A stretch of 64,000 nucleotides of DNA from an uncultured Poribacteria bacterium (GCA_951813565.1 OX638351.1:1120001-1184000), one strand, 5' to 3'. Counted from the first letter of the stretch, positions 31,425 to 46,093 are shown. Numbers and translations: made by a program. The notes: generated by a model from the sequence alone, not told the origin.

Positions 31425-32975
31425 TTATCTGTGATGACGTAGTACTTTCCCTGGCAGTTTTCCGGTTACATTTCCATCTTTGATGACGGGAATTCCGTTG
31501 ACGAATACCCAATCCACACCGACAGGGGGTTGCACTGGATCAAACCAAGTAGAACGATCTGCGACAGTATCAGGATTAAAAATAACAATATCTGCAGCAA
31601 GTCCACGCGCAATTTTTCCACGGTCAGCAAGTCGGAATCGTTCTGCGGGAAAACCACTCATCTTATAAACAGCTTCTTTTAATGAAACTAACTGTCGTTC
31701 TCGTACAAATTTACCAAGATACTGCACGAAGCACCCGTAACTGCGTGGATGCGGATGTGGAATGTTATAAACACCATCGCTGGCAATCATCATACGCGGG
31801 TGTTGTGCGGTACGATTCAAAATCCGTTCATTTTTTTCTGGTGATGTAGCCCACGGCATTACAAAGGTTTCAATTGCTAATTCTTCTTGGATAAAATCGA
31901 ATGCGAATTCTTCGTTGGATTTGCCTTCACGTTTAGCAGCGTCTGAGAGTAGGATGCCGATATATCTTCCAGACTTGTTATAGCCTACAATTTGGTTGCC
32001 TTCTCCTAATTTTTCTCGCAGATAGGGGAGTGATTTTTCTCTAACATCGGGATTTTCCAGATTTGCTAACATTTCATCAGGTGTACCTGTCTGATATTCC
32101 ATTGGGAGCATCATTGCAAGGTGTGTCATCCCTGCTGGATAGAGATAAGATTCAAATGTCAAATCTATGCCTTCACGTTCAACTCGCTCAAGCACGTCCG
32201 CCGATTCATCATCAACGCGTTCATGTGAAATATGGACTGGAATCTCTGCCTGTTGCGCAATTTCAATTGTTTCCTCCCAAGCAGGTTTTCTACCAATAAG
32301 TTGGTAACGGATGTGTGCAGCGTAGATGGCATCGTAACTTGCTGCTACCTTTGAAAGATAGACTAACTCGTTCAAGTCAGCATTTGCAGAGGGTTGATAA
32401 TCCAGACCTAAACAGAGACAACATGCCCCCGCTTCAAGCCATTCGCGTGTGGTTTGCTCCATCGCTTTCAGTTCATCGGTGGTAGCAGGACGTGCATCCC
32501 ATCCCATCGCACCGAGACGGACAGCGCAATGCGGCACTTGCGGGTAGAGGTTTGCAGGAATTTGCCCATCGAACATACTGAGATATTCGTCTGGTGTTTG
32601 CCAATTTAGCGGAACTTTGTCATCTCCATACGCAAATTGCGTATAGTGCCATAGTTCTTGTGCGAGTTTTGAGGGCAAAGGTGCCCATCCAAAACCGTCT
32701 GGTGCCGCTAAATGAGTGGTTACACCCTGCATTACAGCAGCAAACTGGTCACGCCCACCCAGTAGTGAGATTTCAGAATGAACGTGAACATCAACGAAGC
32801 CGGGACACACAACCAATCCATCTGCTGATATTCGCCGTGAGGCTTCCGCTTTTTGTAAATTGCCTATTTCTGTGATCTGACCGCCATGAATACCGATATC
32901 TGCAACATAAGGTTCCCGTTTTCCTGTGCCATCAACGATGTTTCCACCGGCAATAATAATATCAAATGCCACCAA
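31425..32975 (-). CDS. N-acyl-D-amino-acid deacylase family amidohydrolase
   Basis: GGNIVDGTG, PGFVDVHVH, ASDG, HPRSYG, ADIVIF. Confidence 0.88.
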   Translation of the reverse strand: MVAFDIIIAGGNIVDGTGKREPYVADIGIHGGQITEIGNLQKAEASRRISADGLVVCPGFVDVHVHSEISLLGGRDQFAAVMQGVTTHLAAPDGFGWAPLPSKLAQELWHYTQFAYGDDKVPLNWQTPDEYLSMFDGQIPANLYPQVPHCAVRLGAMGWDARPATTDELKAMEQTTREWLEAGACCLCLGLDYQPSANADLNELVYLSKVAASYDAIYAAHIRYQLIGRKPAWEETIEIAQQAEIPVHISHERVDDESADVLERVEREGIDLTFESYLYPAGMTHLAMMLPMEYQTGTPDEMLANLENPDVREKSLPYLREKLGEGNQIVGYNKSGRYIGILLSDAAKREGKSNEEFAFDFIQEELAIETFVMPWATSPEKNERILNRTAQHPRMMIASDGVYNIPHPHPRSYGCFVQYLGKFVRERQLVSLKEAVYKMSGFPAERFRLADRGKIARGLAADIVIFNPDTVADRSTWFDPVQPPVGVDWVFVNGIPVIKDGNVTGKLPGKVLRHHR

Positions 32976-32988
32976 TCCCTCCTATAAT

Positions 32989-33192
32989 AACTCAAGTTGC
33001 TACCTATTTCGCAAATTCTCTTGTAGGAGGGGTTTCTAACCCCGATTTAGAACAAAAAACATAAGAATCAGCGAAAAAGCCTTGTTTTTTCAGTAAAAAG
33101 CAGTGTTTGCTAACTTGAAATCTTGTCCGTAGCAACTTAGGTTAAAATACAATGGCTGCCGGCTCAAAATCTTATAGGTAGCAACTTAGATT
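32989..33192. mobile_element. MITE, AACCYAAGTTG-end family, with a REP cargo and a doubled right end
   Basis: AACTCAAGTTGCTAC...GTAGCAACTTAGGTT (33143), a second right end GTAGCAACTTAGATT (33192); ATAAT on both flanks. Confidence 0.6.
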
Positions 33193-33311
33193 ATAATAGT
33201 ACTATTCTTCAATCCGAAAAGTGTAGAAGAAATACGTTTTGACCTGTCTTTGAATAATGGTTGAATTATAACATATTCCAGTGATCCATTCAATACTGTC
33301 TATATTCAGTT

Positions 33312-33433
33312 CAGGGTTATTTAGTTTTAGGGTTTTTGCCCATTTTCGTCAAAAAGTCGCGAGCTGGAGCTCGCTCCTACAGCAAGAGGGGCATTCAAGA
33401 ATAACCGAAAATATGGAGAACTGAATAACCCTG
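33312..33433. mobile_element. 122-bp MITE with CAGGG ends (ISAs1-like) carrying a REP
   Basis: TIR CAGGGTTATTTAGTT / AACTGAATAACCCTG (14 of 15 match); flanks ATATTCAGTT and GTATTCAGTT; internal GTCGCGAGCTGGAGCTCGCTCCTACA. Confidence 0.7.
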
Positions 33434-33570
33434 GTATTCAGTTGCTTATTTCACTTGCTTCTGTTATACTTGCATGACATAAACAGATAGATTAGATATG
33501 TTAATTTTCTTTACAAACTTCTGAATGATGTGTTAAAATTAAGGAAAGGTTTTATAGATAGTAGTTGTAA

Positions 33571-34443
33571 TTGTCAGCAAATATTGACGCATGCAATTTG
33601 GTGAAAACGTTGATTGATAAGAAACTGTTTCGAGAGAAATTCTTTCTCCATCTTATTAGTAACCCTTACGTCATTTACCCATTTGCGGCGGGTGTGCTTG
33701 GCGTTTTCGCGTCATGGGTGTTTAATTTAGAACCGAAGATTCTCTACTTATTCGCAAGTACTGTCATCGGTATCGGTCTTCCTATTGGTGCGCTGATAAC
33801 AAAGTGGACAACTGGCACGGACGACATCGCAAAACGCGTTCATGAAGAGATACTCCACGAAGCACAGCAAAGACAGGAACAGGAACTGAATGCGTTACAT
33901 GAACAGTTAGAAAAGGATGGAGACAAAAGAACAGAACAGATGCTGGAGGAACTTCGTGCCTTACACCAATCTTTTCAGGAGGAAGCACGGGACGCTGGTT
34001 GGATGGCAACCCTTCCTATTACGGTAAGTGCAGAAATTACCGGTAAGGTCACTGAACTTTTTACGCAAGCCGTTCAGTGTTTGAAAGATACGTTGAAAAT
34101 GCATGAGAAATCAAAAGATTCGCAATTAGCAACTGTCAAGCAAGTTCTGCAACAACACCGAGAACAGCAGATAGCAGACGTTCAGCAAACAATTGTTCAA
34201 CTTTCACATCTCTATGCACGTGTGCTTACGCTTAGTCCTGAAAGTAATGAGACAGAACTCTCACGACTACGCACGGAACTTGACGAAAGCCTCGCTTTTG
34301 CGAAGAAGGTTGATGAACAGATACGGGAGTTTACGCCAAATATTGATAAAGAGATACGTCAAACGAGTCATTCATTAGAAGACGCCCATACTGTGACTGT
34401 GCACCCGAAAGTAGAATCTACGGAAGAAAGCAAGTTTCAATAA
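33571..34443 (+). CDS. Membrane-anchored coiled-coil protein (2 TM), first gene of the PspA/AAA cluster
   Basis: Two N-terminal hydrophobic segments, then a long Q/E/L-rich helical region; start codon uncertain. Confidence 0.7.
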   Translation: MSANIDACNLVKTLIDKKLFREKFFLHLISNPYVIYPFAAGVLGVFASWVFNLEPKILYLFASTVIGIGLPIGALITKWTTGTDDIAKRVHEEILHEAQQRQEQELNALHEQLEKDGDKRTEQMLEELRALHQSFQEEARDAGWMATLPITVSAEITGKVTELFTQAVQCLKDTLKMHEKSKDSQLATVKQVLQQHREQQIADVQQTIVQLSHLYARVLTLSPESNETELSRLRTELDESLAFAKKVDEQIREFTPNIDKEIRQTSHSLEDAHTVTVHPKVESTEESKFQ

Positions 34444-34490
34444 GTTGTTAATTGTAGGCGAACTTAATCTCATAATAAGGAAGAATTCCA

Positions 34491-35166
34491 ATGTTAAACG
34501 GCATTACCCGTTATTTCAAAGGAATCTGGTATGCGCTTATTGGTCAGGCACAGAGGCAGAGCAATAGACACACGCATAATCTAAAAGCAGTACGAGCTGC
34601 CTATGAAGTCCTAATCCGTGTTAAGCAGGAGGATGTCCAGAATTACAAACAGGTGATTGGGCAAACAATCGCGCTGATTGAACAAAAGAAAAATGCCCTT
34701 ACGGGTGTTACAAACGACATTGACAAGCTCGAACAGATGAAGACAGGCGCAATTGATAAGGCAAAAAACACTGCCGCTGAACTACAAAAAACGGGTTTAT
34801 CAGCAGAGGAAATAGAACAGCATCCAGACTATGTCCGACATATTACTTCTTATAATGATTATCACTCCACATTGGAGGAGAAAAACGCGCGCATTGATGA
34901 ACTTAAGCAGGATATTGGACGCGCGCAGGAAGACATTGAAACGCATAAACTTCAGATAACCAGTCTCCATCGTGATCTGAATAAGCTTAAGACACAACAA
35001 TCTGACGCTGCACGTGAACCAAAGGGAAATCAGTGATATGTTATCAGGTATTAGTATGAATGATATTTCAGCGGATTTGATAAAGATACAGGAAGAAATT
35101 CGGCAGAAAGAGGCTGAAGGTGTTAATGAACAATCAGAAACGGATGGAGACAAAAAACCGAAGTAG
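34491..35166 (+). pseudogene. PspA/IM30-like paralog with a frameshift (ORF ends 35036, homology continues to 35166)
   Basis: Colinear with 36066..36902 (SYNDYHSTLEEKNARIDEL); lacks VADLIT, then the +1 frame reads QREISDMLSGISMNDISADL. Confidence 0.75.
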
Positions 35167-35296
35167 TTGCAGTAAGAATTCGTACCCTGAGTCAATCTAT
35201 AACAGCAATAAAATAAATGTCTGCGGAAGAAGGAAAACTCCAATAATGTGTTGCTTCAAATAATGGCAAGCGACAGCAAGACAATCAGGAAAATAA

Positions 35297-35824
35297 ATGC
35301 TTGAAACGTTTGAACCTGACATCTTCAAAAAGACCTACATGTCCTATTATCGAAAATGGTGCGTTGCATGGGGTGTTATAATGGTTTTACTTGTTGCATT
35401 GATTGTAACATCATATACCATAAACTCCGAGTCTCAAATTATTGCAACAGGTCTTTTCGTGATTGACCGTATCGCCCTAGGGATCCTAACGGGTTATGGT
35501 TTGATCGGTATTGCTGTTGTATATGCTTTTGCGATTCTTGCTATGAGTCCTGGCCAAGCATTAGGAATTATAGCAATCGGTGGTATAAATGCATGCGGTA
35601 TTATCGCAATTGGGGTTAATGCTGGTGGTATTATAGCGCTCGGTATAAATGCTTATGGAGTTATTGCTATCGGTCCACATGCTTGGGGGATTTATACATT
35701 ATCTAATTCTGAATTTGGCAAAGGCAGATATAGATTTTCACCTAACCATCAAGATGAACAAGCAGTCAAATTCTTTACACATTTTATGCCAAAATTGAAC
35801 ACAGCATTTTCACCTAACTCTTGA
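35297..35824 (+). CDS. Membrane protein with GIIAIG repeats
   Basis: TM helices, then GIIAIGGINAC-GIIAIGVNAG-GIIALGINAY-GVIAIGPHAW. Confidence 0.75.
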   Translation: MLETFEPDIFKKTYMSYYRKWCVAWGVIMVLLVALIVTSYTINSESQIIATGLFVIDRIALGILTGYGLIGIAVVYAFAILAMSPGQALGIIAIGGINACGIIAIGVNAGGIIALGINAYGVIAIGPHAWGIYTLSNSEFGKGRYRFSPNHQDEQAVKFFTHFMPKLNTAFSPNS

Positions 35825-35888
35825 CGTATAAAATATGGATAAACAGTGGTATTCAATTGTCGACTTATTACCTGTTTTAATCTAAAAG

Positions 35889-35914
35889 GTCGCGAGCTGG
35901 AGTTCGCTCCTACA
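35889..35914 (-). repeat. REP-like hairpin
   Basis: GTCGCGAGCTGGAGTTCGCTCCTACA, one mismatch from the copy at 33356-33381. Confidence 0.75.
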
Positions 35915-36065
35915 GGAAGAGGCTTTTTTAAAGAAGGAAATTTATTGGAAAATTGAATGGCTCTGTATGGATAAACACCATAACTTGTTTTAAGGTTGTA
36001 ATTATTGTAAAATTCAGGAATAGATTTCAAATCAAATTTAATCTCACACTCAGGAGGATTTACTA

Positions 36066-36902
36066 ATGGCAAACGGTTTTACTCGTTTTTTCAAAGCAAT
36101 CTGGTATTCACTAACTGGTCGTGCACACGAGCAGGCTGATAAGCTTATGGAAAACCCCGAAGCAGTGCGCGGTGCTTATGAAGATATTATCCGTGACAAA
36201 CAGGGGAATATCCAACGCTACAAAAATGCGATTGGGCAACTGATTGCACTTGTTGAACAGAAAAAGAATTCACTCAAGGGTCTCACAGATGACATAGACA
36301 AACTTGAACAGATGAAGGCGGGGGCAATCGCTAAGGCGAAAAGCACAGCCGCAGAACTAAAAAATTCAGGAACACCGGACGAGGAGATCAAACAGGATCC
36401 AGACTACGTCCGATGTGTTACCTCTTACAACGATTTTCACTCCACTTTGGAGGAGAAAAACGCTCGTATTGATGAACTTGAGCAGGATATTGAACGCGCC
36501 CAAGAAGACATTGAATCCCATAAACTTCAGATTACCGGCCTCCATCGTGATCTGGAAAAAATTAAGACAGAGCAATCTGAAGCGGTTGCCGATCTTATTA
36601 CTGCACGTGAGCAAGAGGAAGTCGCGGATATGCTATCAGGTATTAGTACGGATGGCACTTCAGCAGAATTGACACGGATGCGAGAAATTCGGGAAAAAGC
36701 AAAGGGACGTTCCAAAGTCGCACAAGAACTCGCTGGTACTGATTCGCGCGCTGAAGAAGAAGAATTTCTTGCCGCGGCACGTTCTACTTCTGCTACTGAT
36801 GAATTTGATTCCTTAATCTTCGGAGCGCAACAAACGGATACCGAGAAGAAAACTGATGATTCCGAAGAAGAAAAAGAAAGTAATTCTGAACTGCCTTTAT
36901 AA
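36066..36902 (+). CDS. PspA/IM30/Vipp1 (ESCRT-III superfamily)-like protein
   Basis: Amphipathic N-helix GFTRFFKAIW, ENP hinge (PspA EDP), long coiled-coil hairpin, RMREIREKA...AQELAG, DEFDSL, acidic tail; AGGAGG RBS. Confidence 0.75.
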   Translation: MANGFTRFFKAIWYSLTGRAHEQADKLMENPEAVRGAYEDIIRDKQGNIQRYKNAIGQLIALVEQKKNSLKGLTDDIDKLEQMKAGAIAKAKSTAAELKNSGTPDEEIKQDPDYVRCVTSYNDFHSTLEEKNARIDELEQDIERAQEDIESHKLQITGLHRDLEKIKTEQSEAVADLITAREQEEVADMLSGISTDGTSAELTRMREIREKAKGRSKVAQELAGTDSRAEEEEFLAAARSTSATDEFDSLIFGAQQTDTEKKTDDSEEEKESNSELPL

Positions 36903-36991
36903 AAGTACTCATCGTGGATTGGCGAAGATTCGCGGACTTTGTGCCTCTTGTTAACTTAATTATTGTAAATTTTTCAAATAACGATACACCG

Positions 36992-37025
36992 TTGGTCGGC
37001 GCGTTTTTGTAAGCACGCCGACCAA
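36992..37025. repeat. GC-rich hairpin (REP- or terminator-like)
   Basis: TTGGTCGGCG...CGCCGACCAA. Confidence 0.5.
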
Positions 37026-37113
37026 TAGGTGTTATATATTTTTGTATTTCACCGTGAATGTGAAGTATAGATGTCCGCGTCCTACGGAGGGAAGTGGGAA
37101 AAAGGAGGGTGAT

Positions 37114-38916
37114 GTGAACGTTAACACGTGGCATCAGGAAAATACACCGAATAGTTGGGAAGTTATCTTGGAAGGTTTAAAGGATTTTGAATCCCATGTA
37201 ACAGAAATTAATGAGAAAAAAAAGAGCGCTCCGATTCCAACTGAAACGCTTAAAAAGTTTTTTGATCTCCATAATACGTTAGTAGTGGAAACAGACAAAG
37301 TATCCCATTCATCTGAACAAAACGCCTCAATAGATATTTCATCCGGTGTCTTGGACAATATTTTTATCGAAGCGATTTGGTTATCCCTTGACCAGTATCC
37401 TGCAATTGTCAACCATTCCAATATTGAAAATATTGACACGGCTGGTTCTAAAATCTTCACCCTCTTTACAGCAGATGCCCCAACACAAAAATCAGAACAG
37501 GAAGACCTGAAGGCGCTGCTCCAAGATATATTCCATATAGATTCTAAAGCATTAGACAAACTGACGAAAAACCTCGCCATTCGAACTGCCCCTCTCATGC
37601 ATCGACATCAAATTATGCGATGTTTACAGAATCGCTTTAATTTAGTGTCCGATAACCCCCAACTTGATGCCGACATCCTTCGTCTCTTTCAGTGTTTATA
37701 TCCAGGCGCGCCTTTTGAAGTTGGCGAAGTCCGATTGATAAAAACCTGTTCTGCACTCTATTTTTGCCTACCTTCTGAAATAAAGGAAGATCCTGCCAAT
37801 ACGCTCAATGAACAAATACCCATTACAACAGATAGAACTCTTAAAAAACAATCTGGTAAAAATTTTAGTTACGCACAATTTCTACGAAGAATTTGGCAAG
37901 TTGAACCGTTTGCACATTTTCCTGTTTTTGGCACTTTTAATGCAGAAGGCTTAGATTTAAAGCTCCGAGAAGAAATTGCCAAAGATGCTGCACTGTCTGT
38001 TGAATTGGTTACGACTACGCTCACACGAATGGTCGGTGTTCTCCCATTGGAAGAACTTGATAAATATCTCATTCATGATACATGGGGACACCAGTGGCAA
38101 GAGAGTTTACTCGATTTTGAGGACCTTTATACCGAATTATCCCTCTTTAATCGGCCGTTATCCTTGACTGAATCTGCCTCAGTTTTAGGTGAACAGACTA
38201 CATTCGCTGAAGCATTCGTTAAAACGACTTCTGGAGAAATTCACCTTGATACTGAAAAAATTACGAAATTCATTGATGCCGAACTTTATGAACGTTCAAT
38301 CATAGCCTTTACACCTATTCTGGCAGAGATGTTAGCAGATGTCGTGGAATATAAATTCTTGCAACTACATCCTGAGCAAGCACATCTTTTGCCGAGTTCT
38401 TCTTTGCTTAAGGCTTTTCCGAGCAAACTTGACTTGACACTTGCAGACCTTCGCAATTGTTTTGAACGAGCCTCTGAAGCATTTCAAACGTGGGTGGATT
38501 CTGATGAAGCAAAACACCGAATACATGCTGAGGTTTGTGAACAACTCGATATTCCAGATAAAGAGATGAATCGCCAAGAATTAGATGATGTCCTTGAAAA
38601 AGCGGTGCAGCTTTGTAAAGAACGGCTTGACCTTTTTTATAAACCGGAATGGTTTTGGGAGAAAACAGCAGATGATTGCCTAAAACTCAACGCGTTTAGT
38701 TTTGCCGCGCTAAATTTTCTCCGAATTCATACTGCATTTCTCCAAACTTATGAAACACTTTCACAAATTGAGACAAAATATAGTTTCAAAGACACGCTTG
38801 TTTTAGCAATGGGAACATTTTTTGAAGTGGAACCACAAAGGAATATATGGCATCTCGAACAGTTTTTAACTGAAGGTTTTCTGCCACGATGGAAAAAGTT
38901 GGCTGAAGCAGGTTAA
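37114..38916 (+). CDS. Large hypothetical protein with a zincin-like HDTWGH motif
   Basis: GTG start after AAGGAGG; about 600 aa, helical; YLIHDTWGHQWQE and ILAEMLAD. Confidence 0.7.
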   Translation: MNVNTWHQENTPNSWEVILEGLKDFESHVTEINEKKKSAPIPTETLKKFFDLHNTLVVETDKVSHSSEQNASIDISSGVLDNIFIEAIWLSLDQYPAIVNHSNIENIDTAGSKIFTLFTADAPTQKSEQEDLKALLQDIFHIDSKALDKLTKNLAIRTAPLMHRHQIMRCLQNRFNLVSDNPQLDADILRLFQCLYPGAPFEVGEVRLIKTCSALYFCLPSEIKEDPANTLNEQIPITTDRTLKKQSGKNFSYAQFLRRIWQVEPFAHFPVFGTFNAEGLDLKLREEIAKDAALSVELVTTTLTRMVGVLPLEELDKYLIHDTWGHQWQESLLDFEDLYTELSLFNRPLSLTESASVLGEQTTFAEAFVKTTSGEIHLDTEKITKFIDAELYERSIIAFTPILAEMLADVVEYKFLQLHPEQAHLLPSSSLLKAFPSKLDLTLADLRNCFERASEAFQTWVDSDEAKHRIHAEVCEQLDIPDKEMNRQELDDVLEKAVQLCKERLDLFYKPEWFWEKTADDCLKLNAFSFAALNFLRIHTAFLQTYETLSQIETKYSFKDTLVLAMGTFFEVEPQRNIWHLEQFLTEGFLPRWKKLAEAG

Positions 38917-38919
38917 TGT

Positions 38920-40812
38920 TTGCAAACATGCAACCTTAGAAGAACGGAGGGAAGAACCATAGCCGTTAAAGATCCAACTTACAAATTCCGCACAGAAGCT
39001 GGAATGCTTATTAATTCTGGCACGTCGCGAAGCATTGTGCTTCACGGGAATATCCACGATCTCTTTTTCGTTGAAGAATCAGGAGAGGAGGATTACATAC
39101 CGCTTGTTCCGTTCCTTACACGGAGTTGGGATATTTCGGGTTTTATCCTCATAGTATATGAACTCAATGGACCGCTCCGTTTTCTGCATGCAAGCGACCG
39201 AGAAAAGGTGAAAAACGCTTTCAACTTATGGCGAGGGGATAGCGAACCTTCACAGAAAAAAACGACCAGTATTTTCGCGCTTCCCAGTAGGGAGGAAGAC
39301 CCCAACAATAAACCAAATAAATCCTTAGATGCGTCTGATGGCTTATTTGAGCAGTATCTGAACGATGCAATCGGTAGTCCGACATTAGCACATGAACTGC
39401 TACGACAATTCTGTCTGATTTCGCGATCTACTAATGCTCGCGGAGAAAAGTTTTTACAGGAAAAGTTACTCATCTTTATAGAAGCAACAGATATGTTACT
39501 CCCTGAAGGGGAAATCCGCAGTTTGAGTTTAGCTGACAGACAAAGGGTTAGCATCGTGCAGGATTGGATTTCTGATTCCGATTTCATGAAGGCTACTGAT
39601 ACGGTTGTCTTCATTGCTGAATCAAAAAGCCTGATAAACTCACGTATTATGCGCTTGCCGCAAGTTGTTGATGTAGAAATTCAATCCCCACAAGTAGAAG
39701 AGCGAAGACATTTTATTTCATGGTTTAATAGAACCCAAAAACCTGCCAAAAAGGAGTTAAATTTATGGGGTAGCCAATCTCAGCTTGCGGTGTTAACGGC
39801 AGGATTATCCATTCAAGCTTTGCGCCAATTGCTTGTTTCAGCCTGTTATTCAGGAGAAAAACTGCGTCCAGACAACGTAATAGAAAAAGTATCTGAATTT
39901 ATCCAAGCGCAGTTGGGAGAGGATGTCGTAGAATTCAAAAAACCTGCACATTCCCTCAAAGATATTATAGGCAACCAGAAATTGATTGAGTTCTTGAGGA
40001 CACAGATAATTCCGCGTATCACATCTACTGGAAAAGATTCTATCTCAGGACTGAGCGTTTGCGGACCTATCGGCAGCGGAAAAACTTTTATCTTTGAAGG
40101 ACTCGCAGGAGAACTTGACATCCCTGTGCTTGTGCTTAAGAACATTCGGAGCATGTGGTTTGGACAGACGGATGTCATCTTTGAACGTCTCAGACGTTTA
40201 CTGATGGCACTCGTGAATGTGCTAATTTTTGTTGATGAAGCGGATACGCAGTTCGGGGATGTCGGAAGGGACGCACACGCAACTGAACGTAGACTTACAG
40301 GAAAAATACAAGCGATGATGTCTGACCCACAGTTACGCGGCAATATCACATGGCTGCTGATGACAGCACGCATCTATAATCTTTCCCCTGACTTACGCAG
40401 GGAGGGTAGGGTTGGAGACATCGTAATTCCAGTCCTCGACCCAACAGGTGAAGACCGTGAGACATTTTTACGTTGGACATTGAGCAACGTTTTCAGTGGC
40501 GATATTCCAGATGAGGCGTTTAAACTCCTTCTATCGCTGACTGAAGGCTATTCAGCAGCGAGTTTCGCATCTCTCCGTGCTGACCTTGAAGCTGCCAAAA
40601 ACCGCGAAGGAAAGTTATCTGTAGACGAAATAATTGATGTAATCTCGGATAGGATTCTGCCCAATATCGGTCCAATTCGGCGCTATCAAACCTTACAAGC
40701 TTTTCTGAATTGTACCCGCAAATCCTTACTTCCGGTGGACTACTCCCCAGAAACACGTGAATCGTGGTTAGAACAAATAGCGCAGTTAGAAGCTATGGGA
40801 ATTAGAGGCTGA
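38920..40812 (+). CDS. AAA+ ATPase with a degenerate N-terminal and an active C-terminal module
   Basis: GPIGSGKT, pore loop SMWFGQT, IFVDEAD, LRREGRVG; N-terminal SIVLHGN and LLIFIE remnants. Confidence 0.85.
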   Translation: MQTCNLRRTEGRTIAVKDPTYKFRTEAGMLINSGTSRSIVLHGNIHDLFFVEESGEEDYIPLVPFLTRSWDISGFILIVYELNGPLRFLHASDREKVKNAFNLWRGDSEPSQKKTTSIFALPSREEDPNNKPNKSLDASDGLFEQYLNDAIGSPTLAHELLRQFCLISRSTNARGEKFLQEKLLIFIEATDMLLPEGEIRSLSLADRQRVSIVQDWISDSDFMKATDTVVFIAESKSLINSRIMRLPQVVDVEIQSPQVEERRHFISWFNRTQKPAKKELNLWGSQSQLAVLTAGLSIQALRQLLVSACYSGEKLRPDNVIEKVSEFIQAQLGEDVVEFKKPAHSLKDIIGNQKLIEFLRTQIIPRITSTGKDSISGLSVCGPIGSGKTFIFEGLAGELDIPVLVLKNIRSMWFGQTDVIFERLRRLLMALVNVLIFVDEADTQFGDVGRDAHATERRLTGKIQAMMSDPQLRGNITWLLMTARIYNLSPDLRREGRVGDIVIPVLDPTGEDRETFLRWTLSNVFSGDIPDEAFKLLLSLTEGYSAASFASLRADLEAAKNREGKLSVDEIIDVISDRILPNIGPIRRYQTLQAFLNCTRKSLLPVDYSPETRESWLEQIAQLEAMGIRG

Positions 40813-40851
40813 CAGGAATACAGCCAATACAAAATACACAGACAGTCTCCA

Positions 40852-42000
40852 TTAACTTATACTGATAACCTTCCCACTTGCAGCAGAACGGTATCCAGCA
40901 CAAATAATTTCAACGGAATGTGCAGCAAATTCAGCGTTCATCTCACTCTCAACTCCATTTTCAATACAATCTATAAACGCGCTAAATTCACTTGGTCCAT
41001 CATTTCCACTGCCGACATCAATCCAGTGCTGCTTTGGTTGCATTTTAATTTCTGCCTGTGTGCTACTCCACATACCCATCGGGTCAAGCGGGTGCGGTGT
41101 CGGCGGCTCAAATGCTGGTTCTGCGGCAAACACTTCTAACCTATTCACCGAAGCGTCAAATGTCAGTGTAGCCTCAGTGCCGACGAGGTGAACCTTTCGT
41201 AAGCCTCCTTGCGCATGGCTTTGCCAACCGTAACGGCCCGCAGCTACCGTTGCGGTAATATCATTTTCTAATGTTAAGACCAACGCGCCGAAATCCTCTA
41301 AGTCACAGCCGTGATGTTCTTTAAAAAAGTAATTTGCCGTTCCACCAAACACGCGCTGCACTCGTTTCTGTGTCAACCAATTCACCATTGACACAGCATA
41401 AACACCAATATCAAACATTTCTGGTTTTGCTTCCACAAAACTATACTGTTCCAAATTCGGTTTCTGTATCCGTTTTTTACCGACAGGTGCAGTTCCTGGA
41501 TGTCCTTTCGCAAACATGACATCGCAATGAATCGCTTGTAGTTTACCGATGTGTCCACTGTCTAATCCTTGTTTGACCGTCCGTGCCCATGTGCTATGTA
41601 TGTTACTGAACATCTGTGTGCGAACACCGCTTTTTGTAACAGCATCAACAATCTGTTGTGCCTGTTCAGCGTTGAGTGCCATTGGTTTATCAAGGTAGAC
41701 GTGCTTTCCTGCTTCTGCACATTTCGTTCCAACACGACCACGCCTTTCAACTTCTGTGCAGAGACTTACAATATGCACATCATCACGCGCTAACGCCTCA
41801 TCAAGGTCAGGAATGAAGGGCAAGTTTAATTCTTCTGCGAGGGAACGTGCCAATGCAACCCGTTCCGCAGGCGCATCTTGCTCATCAGCAAAGGCAATAA
41901 GTTGACATCGGGAATCATTCGCAAAAAGTTGTGCATAATTTTCTTGATGTGTGCGATGTCCACCGAGCAGTAGGACACCGTATTTTCCGTTTTTTTCCAT
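40852..42000 (-). CDS. Gfo/Idh/MocA oxidoreductase
   Basis: AGKHVYLDKP, DIGVY, YRSAASGK. Confidence 0.85.
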   Translation of the reverse strand: MEKNGKYGVLLLGGHRTHQENYAQLFANDSRCQLIAFADEQDAPAERVALARSLAEELNLPFIPDLDEALARDDVHIVSLCTEVERRGRVGTKCAEAGKHVYLDKPMALNAEQAQQIVDAVTKSGVRTQMFSNIHSTWARTVKQGLDSGHIGKLQAIHCDVMFAKGHPGTAPVGKKRIQKPNLEQYSFVEAKPEMFDIGVYAVSMVNWLTQKRVQRVFGGTANYFFKEHHGCDLEDFGALVLTLENDITATVAAGRYGWQSHAQGGLRKVHLVGTEATLTFDASVNRLEVFAAEPAFEPPTPHPLDPMGMWSSTQAEIKMQPKQHWIDVGSGNDGPSEFSAFIDCIENGVESEMNAEFAAHSVEIICAGYRSAASGKVISIS

Positions 42001-42951: not shown

Positions 42952-43076
42952 ACCATCACATATTAAGTTAGCATAATTAGGATACCTTGTCAATTTCTGA
43001 GTTTCTTGTAGTTAAGGCGATTCGTTTCGCAACGTATTCGCCTTCAACACAAAAACAGATACGAATGGAGAAAAGG

Positions 43077-44147
43077 ATGCTACATGTCTCTATGAATCGT
43101 TTCAGCTTGTTGAATGTGTTAAAGAAATATATCCCATTGGGGTTTTTCATTCTCGCTTTCTTTATTTGTGGTTGTGATGGGATGAAAAAGCAGCAGCTAA
43201 ACATCTTTACTTGGTCAGGGTACGTCAGTGAAGAGATACGTTCAGGATTTGAGGATGAGTTCGGTGTGAATGTCATTGTAGATACTTTTGGTGCCAATGA
43301 AGATCTACTTGCTAAGTTATCTGCTGGTGCAACAGGTTATGACATTATTATGCCATCAGATTATATGGTTTCTATCATGATAAAGGAAAACTTATTAGCA
43401 GAGTTGAATCGCGAGAACATTCCTAACTTTCAGAACATCAGTCCACTTTTTCTTGGTAAGTACTACGATCCAGAAAACCGCTATTCTGTGCCATATACCT
43501 TCGGCACTGCAGGTATCGCCTACGATTCATCTAAGGTTTCATCTGATCCTGAAAGTTGGTCGGTACTTTGGGATGAAAAATATAAGAATCAATTCAGTAT
43601 GCTTGATGACCAACGTGAGACACTTGGTGTCGCCTTTAAACTTCTCGGATATAGCATCAATACAACCGATCCTGAACAACTTAGACAAGCAAAAGAGAAA
43701 TTAATTGAACAGAGACCGATCGTTAAACAGTACAAGAGCGAAGCTGAAGAGCTGCTTATTGCGGGCGATGTCATTATGGCGCATTGCTGGAGTGGCGACG
43801 CGTTTCGCGCTGCAGCGGAGCGTCCTTCCATCCGCTATGTGATTCCAAAAGAAGGGTCAAGCCAATTTATTGACACCGTCTGTATTCCAAAATCCGCCCC
43901 ACATAAAGATCTTGCCGAAAAGTTTATTAATTATCTCCTCCGTCCAGAGGTCAATGCCAAAATTACTGCTTTTACCAAATATGGTACTTGTGTCACAGCT
44001 GCCAAAGAACACTTGCCAGAAGATCTGCAGAAACATAAATTTATCTATCCGCCAGCAGAAGTTATGGAGTCCCTTGAATGGTTGAAAGACCAAGGTGAGT
44101 TTACACAACAATACAGCCGCGCATGGGACGAAATTAAGGCAAGATAA
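43077..44147 (+). CDS. potD: Spermidine/putrescine ABC transporter substrate-binding lipoprotein
   Basis: Lipobox ICGC; LNIFTWSGY, GYDIIMPSDY, WSGDA, IPKEG, FINYLLRPE; start codon approximate. Confidence 0.85.
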   Translation: MLHVSMNRFSLLNVLKKYIPLGFFILAFFICGCDGMKKQQLNIFTWSGYVSEEIRSGFEDEFGVNVIVDTFGANEDLLAKLSAGATGYDIIMPSDYMVSIMIKENLLAELNRENIPNFQNISPLFLGKYYDPENRYSVPYTFGTAGIAYDSSKVSSDPESWSVLWDEKYKNQFSMLDDQRETLGVAFKLLGYSINTTDPEQLRQAKEKLIEQRPIVKQYKSEAEELLIAGDVIMAHCWSGDAFRAAAERPSIRYVIPKEGSSQFIDTVCIPKSAPHKDLAEKFINYLLRPEVNAKITAFTKYGTCVTAAKEHLPEDLQKHKFIYPPAEVMESLEWLKDQGEFTQQYSRAWDEIKAR

Positions 44148-44511: not shown

Positions 44512-46093
44512 GTGAAATTCCGAAAAACGTTGAAATTCATGGTTCAAAATCCGTCCACATTTTTCCTATGTTATTTATAGTAAAATTCACAATTACCTTT
44601 ACATTGGCGAGGTTAGGAAACCTCGCCAGCGCATGCGTGTGGGAATTGCTGTTCATTGAAATGTGAACATATTATTGGATTTTACTATAATATGCTGGAT
44701 TTTCTTTTCTGCTTTACACACCTTAACAGACGACCCTTTCATATATGGGACCTTACCTGATGTAGATGAGGAGGTAAAGAATTCCACAAACCACTTACCT
44801 TGGTCGCTATGGAAACTACTTTCTGCACTATCTCTTATCATTGAGGAAATCGTAAGTGATTTGTCACCTATTGAAAGAAGTTGGATTGCCTTAGTTCCTG
44901 CTCTAATCTTGGTTTACATAGAAGCAAGGGGAAATGTAAACGGTATAGCCAACGAAAGAAAGGAGTGGATGAATTGGTACGGTCAGCAACAAAAAGCAAA
45001 GGAATTAGGGAACAGTTATGAAGTGCCACCCGTAATGAATAACGATCAGGATGAATCCTATTTCATTAAAGCCCATAAAGTAATTCTATTTAGACTTCGT
45101 TCCCCCAAACGTCTATTTGTCCATTTTGGATACTGGGCTGCTTTTTTGCTTTTCGTAGCCGTCATTCTGTTTATCAACGATGGAATTGTAGTGACCGTTC
45201 AATACATTATAAAGGACCTTCATGTATTGGTTATACTTGCGGCAATACTTGCGCCCATCTCATGTTACTTTGAGACAAGGGGATTTTTGAAAGGGATTGC
45301 TGCTGAAAGCCGAATGTGGATTGAGTGGTATAATCGACAGTGGGCTGCTATAAAACTTGGTGCTGATTTTGAGGAACCACCATCATCCCCAAAAATGAGG
45401 GTTGAATCATATTCCAAGACGTTAGCAGAAACAGTCGTATTCATGCTACGAAACCCGAGATCGTTTTTCATACATTTTATGTCTTGGGTCTTTGCCGTGC
45501 CTATGTTATTCATTTTCTTTGCAATCATTTTTAATTTTTACGAAAATTTGACTATTCCATCACTGCAGGAAGTTGTGGAAATTTATTTCGAATTTTGTAT
45601 ACCTCTTACAATTTTTGCTGTTATCATCAGTTATCAAGAGGCGAAAGGAAATTTAAAAGGCGTTGTGTCTGAACAGCAGGTGTGGAATAGGTGGTATACA
45701 CGGCAACAAGCAGTTCCGCAGGATAATCCTTTTGAAGAATTGTCTTCATTTGCAAACAAGCAGCCTGATACATATTTTTTGACTGCTGAAAGGACATTGC
45801 TATCTATGCTCCGCAAACCACAGCAATTTATCCTTCACTTAATTTGTTGGATATCCGGTTTTGTGGTAGTATATGGAATCACAGACCTGTTCGTTATTGA
45901 AGAAATGCCTGATACTGTGCAGATTCTGCTTGTCATAACACTTGCATTCATCTCATGCTACCAAAGGATAAAAGGCAATATGAATGGAACTAATTCACAG
46001 CGGCGGGCATGGATGGACTGGTATAACCGACAGCAGCAAGCAGAAGACGGTTTACAACCTACTGAGTCTCCGCCAATGTTAGGGGTTTTTTAA
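44512..46093 (+). pseudogene. Four-repeat membrane protein interrupted by a MITE (residual ORF 44663..46093)
   Basis: GAGGA RBS and GTG at 44512 give MKFRKTLKFMVQNPSTFFLCYL*; removing 44578-44689 joins this in frame to ICWIFFSAL; four G..G...(E/Q)...W..WY.(R/Q)Q units. Confidence 0.75.
44578..44687. mobile_element. 110-bp MITE with a TA target duplication (IS630/Tc1-like)
   Basis: TA|TAGTAAAATTCA...TGGATTTTACTA|TA; internal hairpin TGGCGAGGTTAGGAAACCTCGCCA. Confidence 0.8.

Follow-up and report, generated by a model that had tools for sequence, protein, structure and literature searches.

How polymers of the bacterial PspA and Vipp1 proteins are taken apart is the question on which the locus described here bears. 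It comprises six open reading frames (ORFs), O1 to O6, at positions 33571..40812 of the window, by which we mean the whole 64,000-nucleotide stretch analysed (bases 1120001-1184000 of a 5.43-Mb single-contig genome). The host is a sponge-associated Poribacteria bacterium, and the closest protein relatives of the window's proteins are named Candidatus Poribacteria. We favour, with moderate confidence, the view that the locus, centred on the PspA-like protein O4 and the AAA ATPase O6, is a PspA-based membrane-remodelling or repair module with its own ATP-driven motor. A PspA that never occurs without its own AAA motor, and that is the sole paralog to keep its tail, would let ATP-driven recycling in bacteria be tested directly in vitro.

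The pairing of PspA with an AAA protein is already in print as a genomic prediction and is not new here. In the accessible part of their text, Ravi et al. (2024; PMC11237479) describe bacterial PspA as occasionally found alongside a protein with two AAA+ domains, the N-terminal copy being inactive, and sometimes also with a membrane-anchored divergent Snf7, ATP-binding cassette (ABC) components and a PBPB+OmpA protein, and they suggest ATP-dependent membrane remodelling comparable to that by Snf7/Vps4. Their genome comparison agrees with a first-pass annotation of the window, which had called such linkages noted but uncharacterised; the literature searched, whose coverage excludes subscription journals, yielded neither experiments on a PspA-AAA pair in bacteria nor any paper with both 'Poribacteria' and 'PspA'. 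As far as their accessible portions go, a 2025 review (PMC7619361) holds a Vps4-like ATPase to be apparently absent in bacteria, and Makarova et al. (2024) find ESCRT systems (vps4 together with ESCRT-III) confined to archaea and eukaryotes. Added here are the distinction between an obligate dyad and an accessory O1-O5 pair, a tail motif, an Ala at the sensor-1 position of the ATPase and the orphan O5 family.

Layout of the locus

The ORF listing of the window puts six ORFs on the + strand at this locus, as first described:

O1, 33571-34443, + strand: membrane anchor candidate, 290 amino acids (aa)
O2, ORF 34491-35036 with remnants to ~35109, + strand: truncated and frameshifted O4 paralog, 181 aa
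O3, 35297-35824, + strand: small hydrophobic protein, sporadic passenger, 175 aa
O4, 36066-36902, + strand: divergent PspA/IM30 protein of the ESCRT-III superfamily, 278 aa
O5, likely 37114-38916 (ORF open from 37042), + strand: orphan protein, ~600 aa (624 aa as ORF)
O6, 38920-40812, + strand: tandem classical AAA ATPase, 630 aa

The first-pass annotation had taken these for a 2-TM (two-transmembrane) coiled-coil protein, a PspA-like paralog, a Gly-repeat membrane protein, a full PspA-like protein with a hairpin-tip insertion and an acidic tail, a zincin-like processing enzyme and an AAA+ ATPase, Vps4-like and bearing an aromatic pore loop (SMWFG), respectively, forming one system of anchor, polymer, ATPase and enzyme.

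O4 and O6 form an obligate dyad and O1 and O5 an accessory pair

The phylum counts of O1, O4, O5 and O6 all come from one sample of 101 Poribacteria genomes. O6 is present in 74 of them (72 close orthologs and two distant ones), and every genome with O4 (71), O1 (48) or O5 (46) is O6-positive. A close O6 ortholog is accompanied by O4 in 71 of 72 genomes; in the exception, G005, O5 and O6 lie at the very start of a contig and O4 was not found. By coordinates O4 directly adjoins O6, for example in G053. O1 and O5 are found together in 45 genomes, O5 alone of the two in G005 and O1 alone in G007, G038 and G061, and both are missing from ~26 O6-positive genomes, including the single-contig G039, G053, G049, G062, G067 and G094. 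On these presence counts, O4-O6 is an obligate dyad and O1-O5 an accessory pair gained and lost jointly. A conserved-neighbourhood check, proposed at first pass, bears out the co-occurrence of O4 and O6, which are linked in every complete case among the 101 genomes, with O1-O4-O6 found in Planctomycetota; of the single system of four parts, the linkage of O4 and O6 stands, while O1 and O5 turn out to be dispensable accessories.

The module is found in each of the 65 genomes sampled from the family to which the window belongs (G000 uncounted). Across the families of the phylum its distribution is patchy, and sequence identity declines with taxonomic distance.

Layouts were read from the tables of 80 related loci obtained via the O5 motif. 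O4, O5 and O6 stand together in ~33 of the 80, the usual order being O1, zero to four paralogs, O4, O5, O6, and the distant Poribacteria loci L075-L077 (O5 ~38% identity) have a minimal O1-O4-O5-O6 layout. O1 and O5 stand alone in ~34 of the 80; in one genome of this kind O4 and O6 are located 3.8 Mb away, with an IS605 TnpB-like ORF between them. At L085:9446-10603 (+ strand), in a Poribacteria genome of this O1-O5-alone kind, a 385-aa ORF between O4 and O6 resembles IS200/IS605 TnpB (OrfB) by eye and has a C-terminal Cys-rich motif; this TnpB-like insertion would split the dyad with both genes kept whole.

The dyad in Planctomycetota and beyond

Of 301 Planctomycetota genomes sampled, the O6 profile matches 59 at E<=1e-40. 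O4 is directly upstream of O6 in eight of the 14 closest planctomycete loci, seen with 1.5-kb flanks only, and all seven wider regions hold both genes, five of them O1 as well. O1-O4-O6 clusters occur in L086 and L119-L123, and O4-O6 pairs in L124 and L125. Four wider regions have an ABC permease and an ABC ATPase between O4 and O6, with a VWA protein and a protein fusing a solute-binding protein (SBP)-like part to OmpA upstream, the order being VWA, SBP-like+OmpA, O1, O4, lipoprotein, ABC permease, ABC ATPase, O6. O5 is rare there, being found in four of the 301 genomes, all O6-positive, two of the four having been search entry points; in L084, SBP+OmpA genes have an O5 homolog immediately downstream.

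More distantly, a canonical Pfam PspA (52-73 bits) lies directly upstream of the tandem AAA in three of 16 loci (L100, L114 and L116), and the other 13 have no Pfam-named PspA-type upstream neighbour within the flank. The wider AAA family is large and, by source names, takes in Planctomycetota, Riflebacteria, Schekmanbacteria and Myxococcales. Seven long planctomycete ORFs included no PspA-AAA fusion. One planctomycete genome, G102, has two O6-like tandem AAAs (C184:63194-65662 and C53:28835-30682), one adjoining a canonical PspA (73 bits) and the other with no PspA in the flank examined.

Pairwise identities of O4 and of O6 co-vary over 21 loci (r 0.88; none of 2000 permutations reaches this r), a covariation that shared descent can explain without interaction.

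O4 is a divergent member of the PspA family

O4 scores 35.5 bits against Pfam PF04012 (PspA_IM30; cut-off 33.9), a narrow margin, its best stretch being residues 133-242; in a whole-genome search O4 and its frame neighbours score 38.5 bits against the same model. Searched as a single sequence against PDB sequences, it finds Vipp1 chains at E ~0.02, and a profile including its paralogs returns coiled-coil noise only. The AlphaFold model, from 22 orthologs of two phyla, has a mean predicted local distance difference test score (pLDDT) of 75.5, above 90 through the hairpin, and places helices at residues 3-16, 21-27, 31-100, 112-193 and 198-255, followed by a disordered tail. This predicted order is one that we take to be that of PspA/Vipp1 (alpha0, the alpha1/alpha2-3 hairpin, alpha4-alpha5), and the strongest amphipathic 14-mer, by hydrophobic moment, is residues 3-16. 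Relative to the two canonical PspAs of L100 and L116, the O4-type hairpin tip has ~26-30 extra residues (alignment; model), which, with the PF04012 score above cut-off, upholds the earlier description of a full PspA-like protein with a tip insertion.

In a Foldseek search of the PDB with the O4 model, the seven best matches are all Vipp1 (6zvr, 8qbw, 8qbs, 7o3x, 7o3w, 8qhx), with E-values of 1e-3 to 2e-2 and probabilities of 0.97-1.0 over ~220-255 columns. VIA-align gives Vipp1 6zvs at Z 10.5 (root-mean-square deviation 2.8, 133 residues aligned), Snf7 5fd9 at Z 10.5 and Shrub 5vo5 at Z 10.6. The structure check of 36066..36902 that had been suggested therefore came out mixed, with Vipp1 best in Foldseek and generic hairpins ranked equal or higher in VIA-align. 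Because VIA-align does not separate O4 from generic hairpins, its placement as a divergent PspA/IM30 protein within the ESCRT-III superfamily rests on the sequence model and helix order, and the fold search is compatible with the PspA family.

O6 is a tandem AAA ATPase nearer to Cdc48 than to Vps4

The Pfam AAA match of O6 (E 9e-14) covers residues 380-500. Its best PDB sequence matches are Cdc48, VAT and p97 (E 8e-19 to ~1e-15), followed by AFG2 and NSF; spastin, katanin and Vps4 are found at E ~1e-7. Against NCBIfam, O6 scores 37 bits to CDC48 (cut-off 802.65) and 24.8 bits to CdvC (NF041006; cut-off 650), so that by cut-off it would be assigned to neither family. Profiles of its N- and C-terminal halves align to each other in hhalign at a probability of 96.6% (E 6e-10; 142 columns that take in the Walker B region, the lid and what lies between), with IFIEATD of the N half aligned to IFVDEAD of the C half. 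No MIT domain was matched by Pfam. With two AAA modules, no MIT match, a CdvC score far under cut-off and Cdc48/VAT/p97 nearer, the Vps4-like label given at first pass has to be withdrawn. The motifs, under their usual names (Walker A and B, pore loop, sensor 1, second region of homology, Arg fingers), are as follows:

Degenerate first module, ~residues 30-335, + strand
GNIHDL in place of Walker A, first module, 39046-39063, + strand
IEATD in place of Walker B, first module, 39478-39492, + strand
Walker A GPIGSGKT, second module, 40063-40086, + strand, residues 382-389
Pore loop RSMWFG, 40147-40164, + strand, residues 410-415
Walker B FVDEAD, 40228-40245, + strand, residues 437-442
MTARI, 40360-40374, + strand, residues 481-485, with Ala at the Cdc48 sensor-1 Asn position
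RREGR, 40396-40410, + strand

The aromatic pore loop was thus correctly recognised at first pass. Among the matches listed, 120 of 120 homologs keep the motifs, save GN[IV]HDL, which is in 93 of 120. The sensor-1 position is Ala (MTARI) in all 120 and, by alignment, Asn in Cdc48; a distant planctomycete homolog, L088, retains TNR at this site. Conserved sequence runs from ~residue 15 straight into the degenerate AAA module, and no Cdc48-type N domain is evident, no fold test having been made of the first 30 residues by themselves. An O6 start at the TTG 3 bases past the O5 stop is made plausible by the conservation among homologs of the residues ahead of Met29. We read O6 as a classical AAA with a predicted degenerate D1 and intact D2, as in the description by Ravi et al. 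(2024).

The O4 tail and the O4 paralogs

The O4 tail (residues 225-278, nt 36738-36899) has 54 residues and a net charge of -12, in keeping with the acidic tail first noted. Two motifs stand out in it:

DEFDSLIF, 36798-36821, + strand
Terminal SELPL, 36885-36899, + strand

All 120 O4 orthologs among the matches listed (74-100% identity) end in SELP[LVI], as SELPL (99), SELPV (15) or SELPI (6), and 105 of them have [DS]EFDxL[IV]. Planctomycetota orthologs, at 38-46% identity, retain ELAGTD, EAEFL and DEFDxLIG, with x-L-P-E at the C-terminus. The tail is confined to the O4 ortholog; the additional paralogs upstream of it have none.

The O2 ORF is 68% identical to O4 residues 1-173 and spans helices alpha0-alpha3, without the tail; O4 residues 183-211 are matched in a different frame at ~35020-35109 (tblastn). 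Because similarity to O4 resumes in another frame past the O2 ORF, we read O2 as a truncated, frameshifted, decaying O4 paralog: paralogy was rightly called at first, for a gene now seen to be broken. Such tail-less paralogs are confined to genus g1, one to four per locus. Many of them have one or two in-frame stops (G028:C29:60166-60714, G029:C3:14673-15221, G030:C1:4040331-4041511), and the g1 array seems to turn over through duplication and decay.

O3 is a hydrophobic protein whose repeats consist largely of Gly, Ile and Ala, much as the term Gly-repeat membrane protein had implied, and has no family match in Pfam, NCBIfam or PADLOC. We treat it as a passenger because just three of the 80 related loci have a homolog (L006, L007 and L073).

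O1 and O5, the accessory pair

Hydropathy gives O1 two hydrophobic segments, at ~residues 33-51 and 57-76, ahead of a ~200-aa helical (coiled-coil) region, which fits its original description; in an alignment of 13 orthologs from two phyla this ~200-aa cytoplasmic region is conserved. O1 homologs adjoin O4 or O5 in related loci. A Snf7- or PspA-like nature was not confirmed: hhalign of O1 against O4 gives a probability of 0.5%, none of the 13 members matches Pfam Snf7, PspA or Rv2743c, and the O1 profile finds nothing below E 0.2 among PDB sequences. In the ESM Atlas, O1 leads to unnamed Planctomycetota clusters and, weakly, to Rv2743c (PspM), carried by its nearest named clusters at a feature score of 0.86 and TM-scores of 0.48-0.53, to be taken as leads only.

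The most likely start of O5 is GTG 37114, behind AAAGGAGG; the ESM Atlas record begins at the same residue. The protein has no sequence match in Pfam, NCBIfam, PADLOC or the PDB (phmmer, and a family profile against the PDB), and Pfam on 61 family members gives nothing consistent and no peptidase family. Among 1.84 billion cluster representatives, searched exhaustively, there are 206 relatives at E<=1e-3. Across the 61 aligned members, F293, P294, H345, G349, H350, E429, D433, E436, S454, D464 and D469 are invariant, and D346, W348, W352 and Q353, among others, are near-invariant; invariant acidic, Ser and Lys residues accompany the O5 motif. The motif itself is:

HDTWGHQWQ (family HDxWGHxWQ), 38074-38100, + strand, residues 345-353 of the 624-aa ORF

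A zincin metallopeptidase, the processing enzyme first proposed, is rejected, as HExxH is absent from O5 and from all 61 family members, and no peptidase family matches in Pfam or NCBIfam. The conserved His, Asp and Glu residues are spaced i, i+4, i+7 on two predicted helices, which tentatively suggests a metal site.

The O5 model is largely helical (pLDDT 90.3; predicted TM-score, pTM, 0.90). Foldseek against the PDB finds nothing at E<=0.001, with TM-scores of at most 0.12, VIA-align (wide and in a second look) aligns the N-terminal hairpin only (residues 22-108, Z<=8), and the ESM Atlas holds no O5 model. These searches used the whole-length model, within which the core (~125-624) was not searched separately. 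O5 is thus predicted with confidence, and its model lacks a structural match over most of its length; we do not claim a new fold.

A proposed mechanism and its rivals

What the parts are and how they are built, how they are linked from genome to genome and which motifs they conserve are shown here; polymerisation, tail recognition, ATP-dependent disassembly and any role of O1 and O5 are what we infer. O4 would be expected to bind the inner membrane via its amphipathic N-terminal helix and to polymerise. The second module of O6, with its aromatic pore loop, would thread substrate and extract or unfold O4 subunits, probably by engaging the acidic tail ending in SELP[LVI], and this extraction would leave the polymer disassembled, recycled or remodelled. 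The accessory pair, O1 with its two transmembrane segments and coiled coil and the orphan, perhaps metal-binding O5, may tether the polymer to the membrane or regulate it there. By analogy, a branch of the AAA family unrelated to Vps4 would here take on a Vps4-type job. A bolder version, which we entertain tentatively and think on the doubtful side, is that the Poribacteria/Planctomycetota branch holds an independently arisen, working bacterial analogue of ESCRT-III/Vps4: a Cdc48-like AAA would strip SELP[LVI]-tailed PspA, the tail-less paralogs would enter the polymer as subunits that cannot be recycled, and O1-O5 would form a novel regulatory unit bound to the membrane, in which O5, as an enzyme dependent on metal and with an as yet unsolved fold, would act on polymer, tail or underlying lipid.

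Several results weigh against a self-contained PspA-recycling module. The Pfam score of O4 is barely above cut-off and covers residues 133-242 only, its Foldseek E-values reach just 1e-3 to 2e-2, and in VIA-align generic hairpins score Z 10.5-12.5, no lower than Vipp1, Snf7 and Shrub, with Z 11-12.5 for coiled coils of the SMC, chemoreceptor and PI3K kinds. An AAA is probably not a general requirement for PspA, since the host genome has three further PspA-family genes (Pfam model, whole-genome search), apparently without an adjacent AAA: a tandem pair at 1029000-1030964 (- strand; 81 and 94 bits), ~90 kb before the window, and a single gene at 4940896-4941516 (+ strand; 36 bits). With Ala replacing the sensor-1 Asn, ATP turnover by O6 may be slow or regulated. 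The presence of ABC importer and SBP+OmpA genes inside the planctomycete cluster suggests an envelope role that goes beyond the recycling of polymers alone.

That last observation is the starting point of a quite unlikely alternative, trans-envelope transport or tethering, in which an ABC importer tethered to peptidoglycan would depend on PspA and the AAA for its assembly or gating and the Poribacteria form is reduced, with its transporter encoded elsewhere. The planctomycete cluster does carry VWA, SBP-like+OmpA, lipoprotein, ABC permease and ABC ATPase genes, an O5 homolog lies beside SBP+OmpA genes in L084, and the same long operon is in the list of Ravi et al. (2024; PMC11237479); against this, Pfam finds no ABC or OmpA genes in the window operon, the minimal operons L075-L077 have none either as judged by profiles of the six window proteins only, and a transporter is not needed for retention of the dyad, because in G053 and other single-contig genomes O4-O6 is kept by itself. 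We think it unlikely, too, that O6 is a Cdc48/FtsH-like extractase of membrane proteins or aggregates and that PspA, co-regulated with it, stabilises the membrane at the extraction site without being its substrate. The nearest solved relatives of O6 (Cdc48/VAT/p97, then AFG2 and NSF), its weak NCBIfam matches to PAN and FtsH and the standing of PspA proteins as membrane-stress effectors all agree with such an extractase, which however gives no account of why a conserved tail and fixed C-terminus occur only on the AAA-linked PspA or why O4 is never without O6; nor do Pfam and NCBIfam show a protease or degradation partner in the operon.

That the locus serves anti-phage defence or abortive infection, disturbing the membrane when a phage infects, is very improbable. 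The patchy distribution among families of the phylum would suit it, as would weak PADLOC matches of O1/O2 to the ZorA, LmuB and JetC coiled coils and of O6 to IetA (E 1e-4 to 6e-6), but these are low-scoring matches to coiled-coil and P-loop segments (best E 6e-6, LmuB, 22.7 bits), the flanks are metabolic without mobile or defence genes, and presence in 65 of 65 own-family genomes with identity falling with distance looks like vertical inheritance. Least credible, and barely so at all, is that O6 is a true Vps4/CdvC ortholog from archaea and the locus a genuine ESCRT-III/Vps4 system: Vps4, spastin and katanin are among its PDB sequence matches (E ~1e-7) and CdvC scores 24.8 bits, but the CdvC cut-off is 650 bits, Cdc48-type E-values are about twelve orders better, and the N-terminal half of O6 is a degenerate AAA module, not an MIT domain. 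Archaeal-transferred Vps4-like ATPases are a separate case with different neighbours, according to the accessible part of Ravi et al. (2024; PMC11237479).

Relation to known systems

The closest published counterpart of the PspA-based module favoured here is the neighbourhood of Ravi et al. (2024): as there, O4 adjoins a two-module AAA with an inactive N-terminal module, and O1 is a membrane-anchored helical partner, although hhalign and Pfam did not confirm the Snf7 nature that their 'TM+Snf7' label would give it. Their long form (PBPB+OmpA, ABC permease, ABC ATPase) is present in the planctomycete relatives L119-L123, whereas the window operon lacks all three. The Poribacteria form also adds the orphan O5 and, in genus g1, one to four tail-less paralogs. 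The Poribacteria locus is thus a variant of the published neighbourhood, without the ABC/OmpA module and with O5 and a paralog array.

Like ESCRT-III/Vps4 (CdvB/CdvC), the locus encodes a tailed ESCRT-III-superfamily protein beside a classical-clade AAA with an aromatic pore loop, and the proposed logic, in which the ATPase would recycle a polymer via its tail, is the same. O6 differs in having two modules and no MIT domain and in being nearer to Cdc48 than to Vps4, the locus has no ESCRT-I/II-like genes, and the SELP[LVI]-COOH tail of O4 is presumably dissimilar to MIM motifs. By this analogy the locus appears ESCRT-III/Vps4-like in logic only, with O6 placed outside the Vps4 family.

With the Psp/Lia systems (PspFABC of E. 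coli, LiaIH of B. subtilis, ClgR-PspA-PspM-PspN of M. tuberculosis) the locus shares a PspA-family effector and a small membrane partner. It has no PspB, PspC, PspF, LiaF or LiaRS by Pfam and NCBIfam, and a family scan of ten flanking ORFs likewise gave no PspB, PspC, PspF or LiaF match, in line with the absence of pspF/B/C and liaRS reported at first pass. PspF, described as an NtrC-type AAA+ transcription factor, is not a classical AAA unfoldase, and no O1 member (0/13) has a Pfam match to Rv2743c. In chloroplasts, VIPP1 and cpHsc70-1 offer another likeness, an ATP-dependent chaperone that binds a PspA-family C-terminal tail and controls oligomeric state, but there the chaperone is an Hsp70, not an AAA, and no operon partnership is involved (PNAS Nexus 2025, PMC12798727, accessible part).

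Flanking genes and other features of the window

The flanking genes are ordinary metabolic ones (pyridine-nucleotide disulphide oxidoreductase, amidohydrolase, Gfo/Idh/MocA oxidoreductases, RtcB, rhodanese, a solute-binding protein and a sulfatase); ten flanking ORFs scanned included no mobile or defence genes. Rfam gave no match at E<=0.1 over 32500-41500, and promoter and terminator scans of the locus gave matches no more numerous than in shuffles. The gap between O4 and the likely O5 start (36903-37113, 211 bases) contains a weak terminator-like hairpin at 37015-37032, which might reduce read-through from the polymer gene to O5 and O6.

The solute-binding protein, of SBP_bac_8 type (E 5e-36), is encoded at 42987-44147 (+ strand), 2 kb downstream of the operon and separated from it by two opposite-strand genes. 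It is probably unrelated to the operon; we note it in view of the solute-binding proteins that belong to planctomycete forms of the system. Further on, at 44663-46093 (+ strand), a 476-aa ORF has no Pfam match and, on reading its translation, apparently four internal repeats, each containing hydrophobic stretches and a recurrent motif of the RGN..G......W..WY..Q type.

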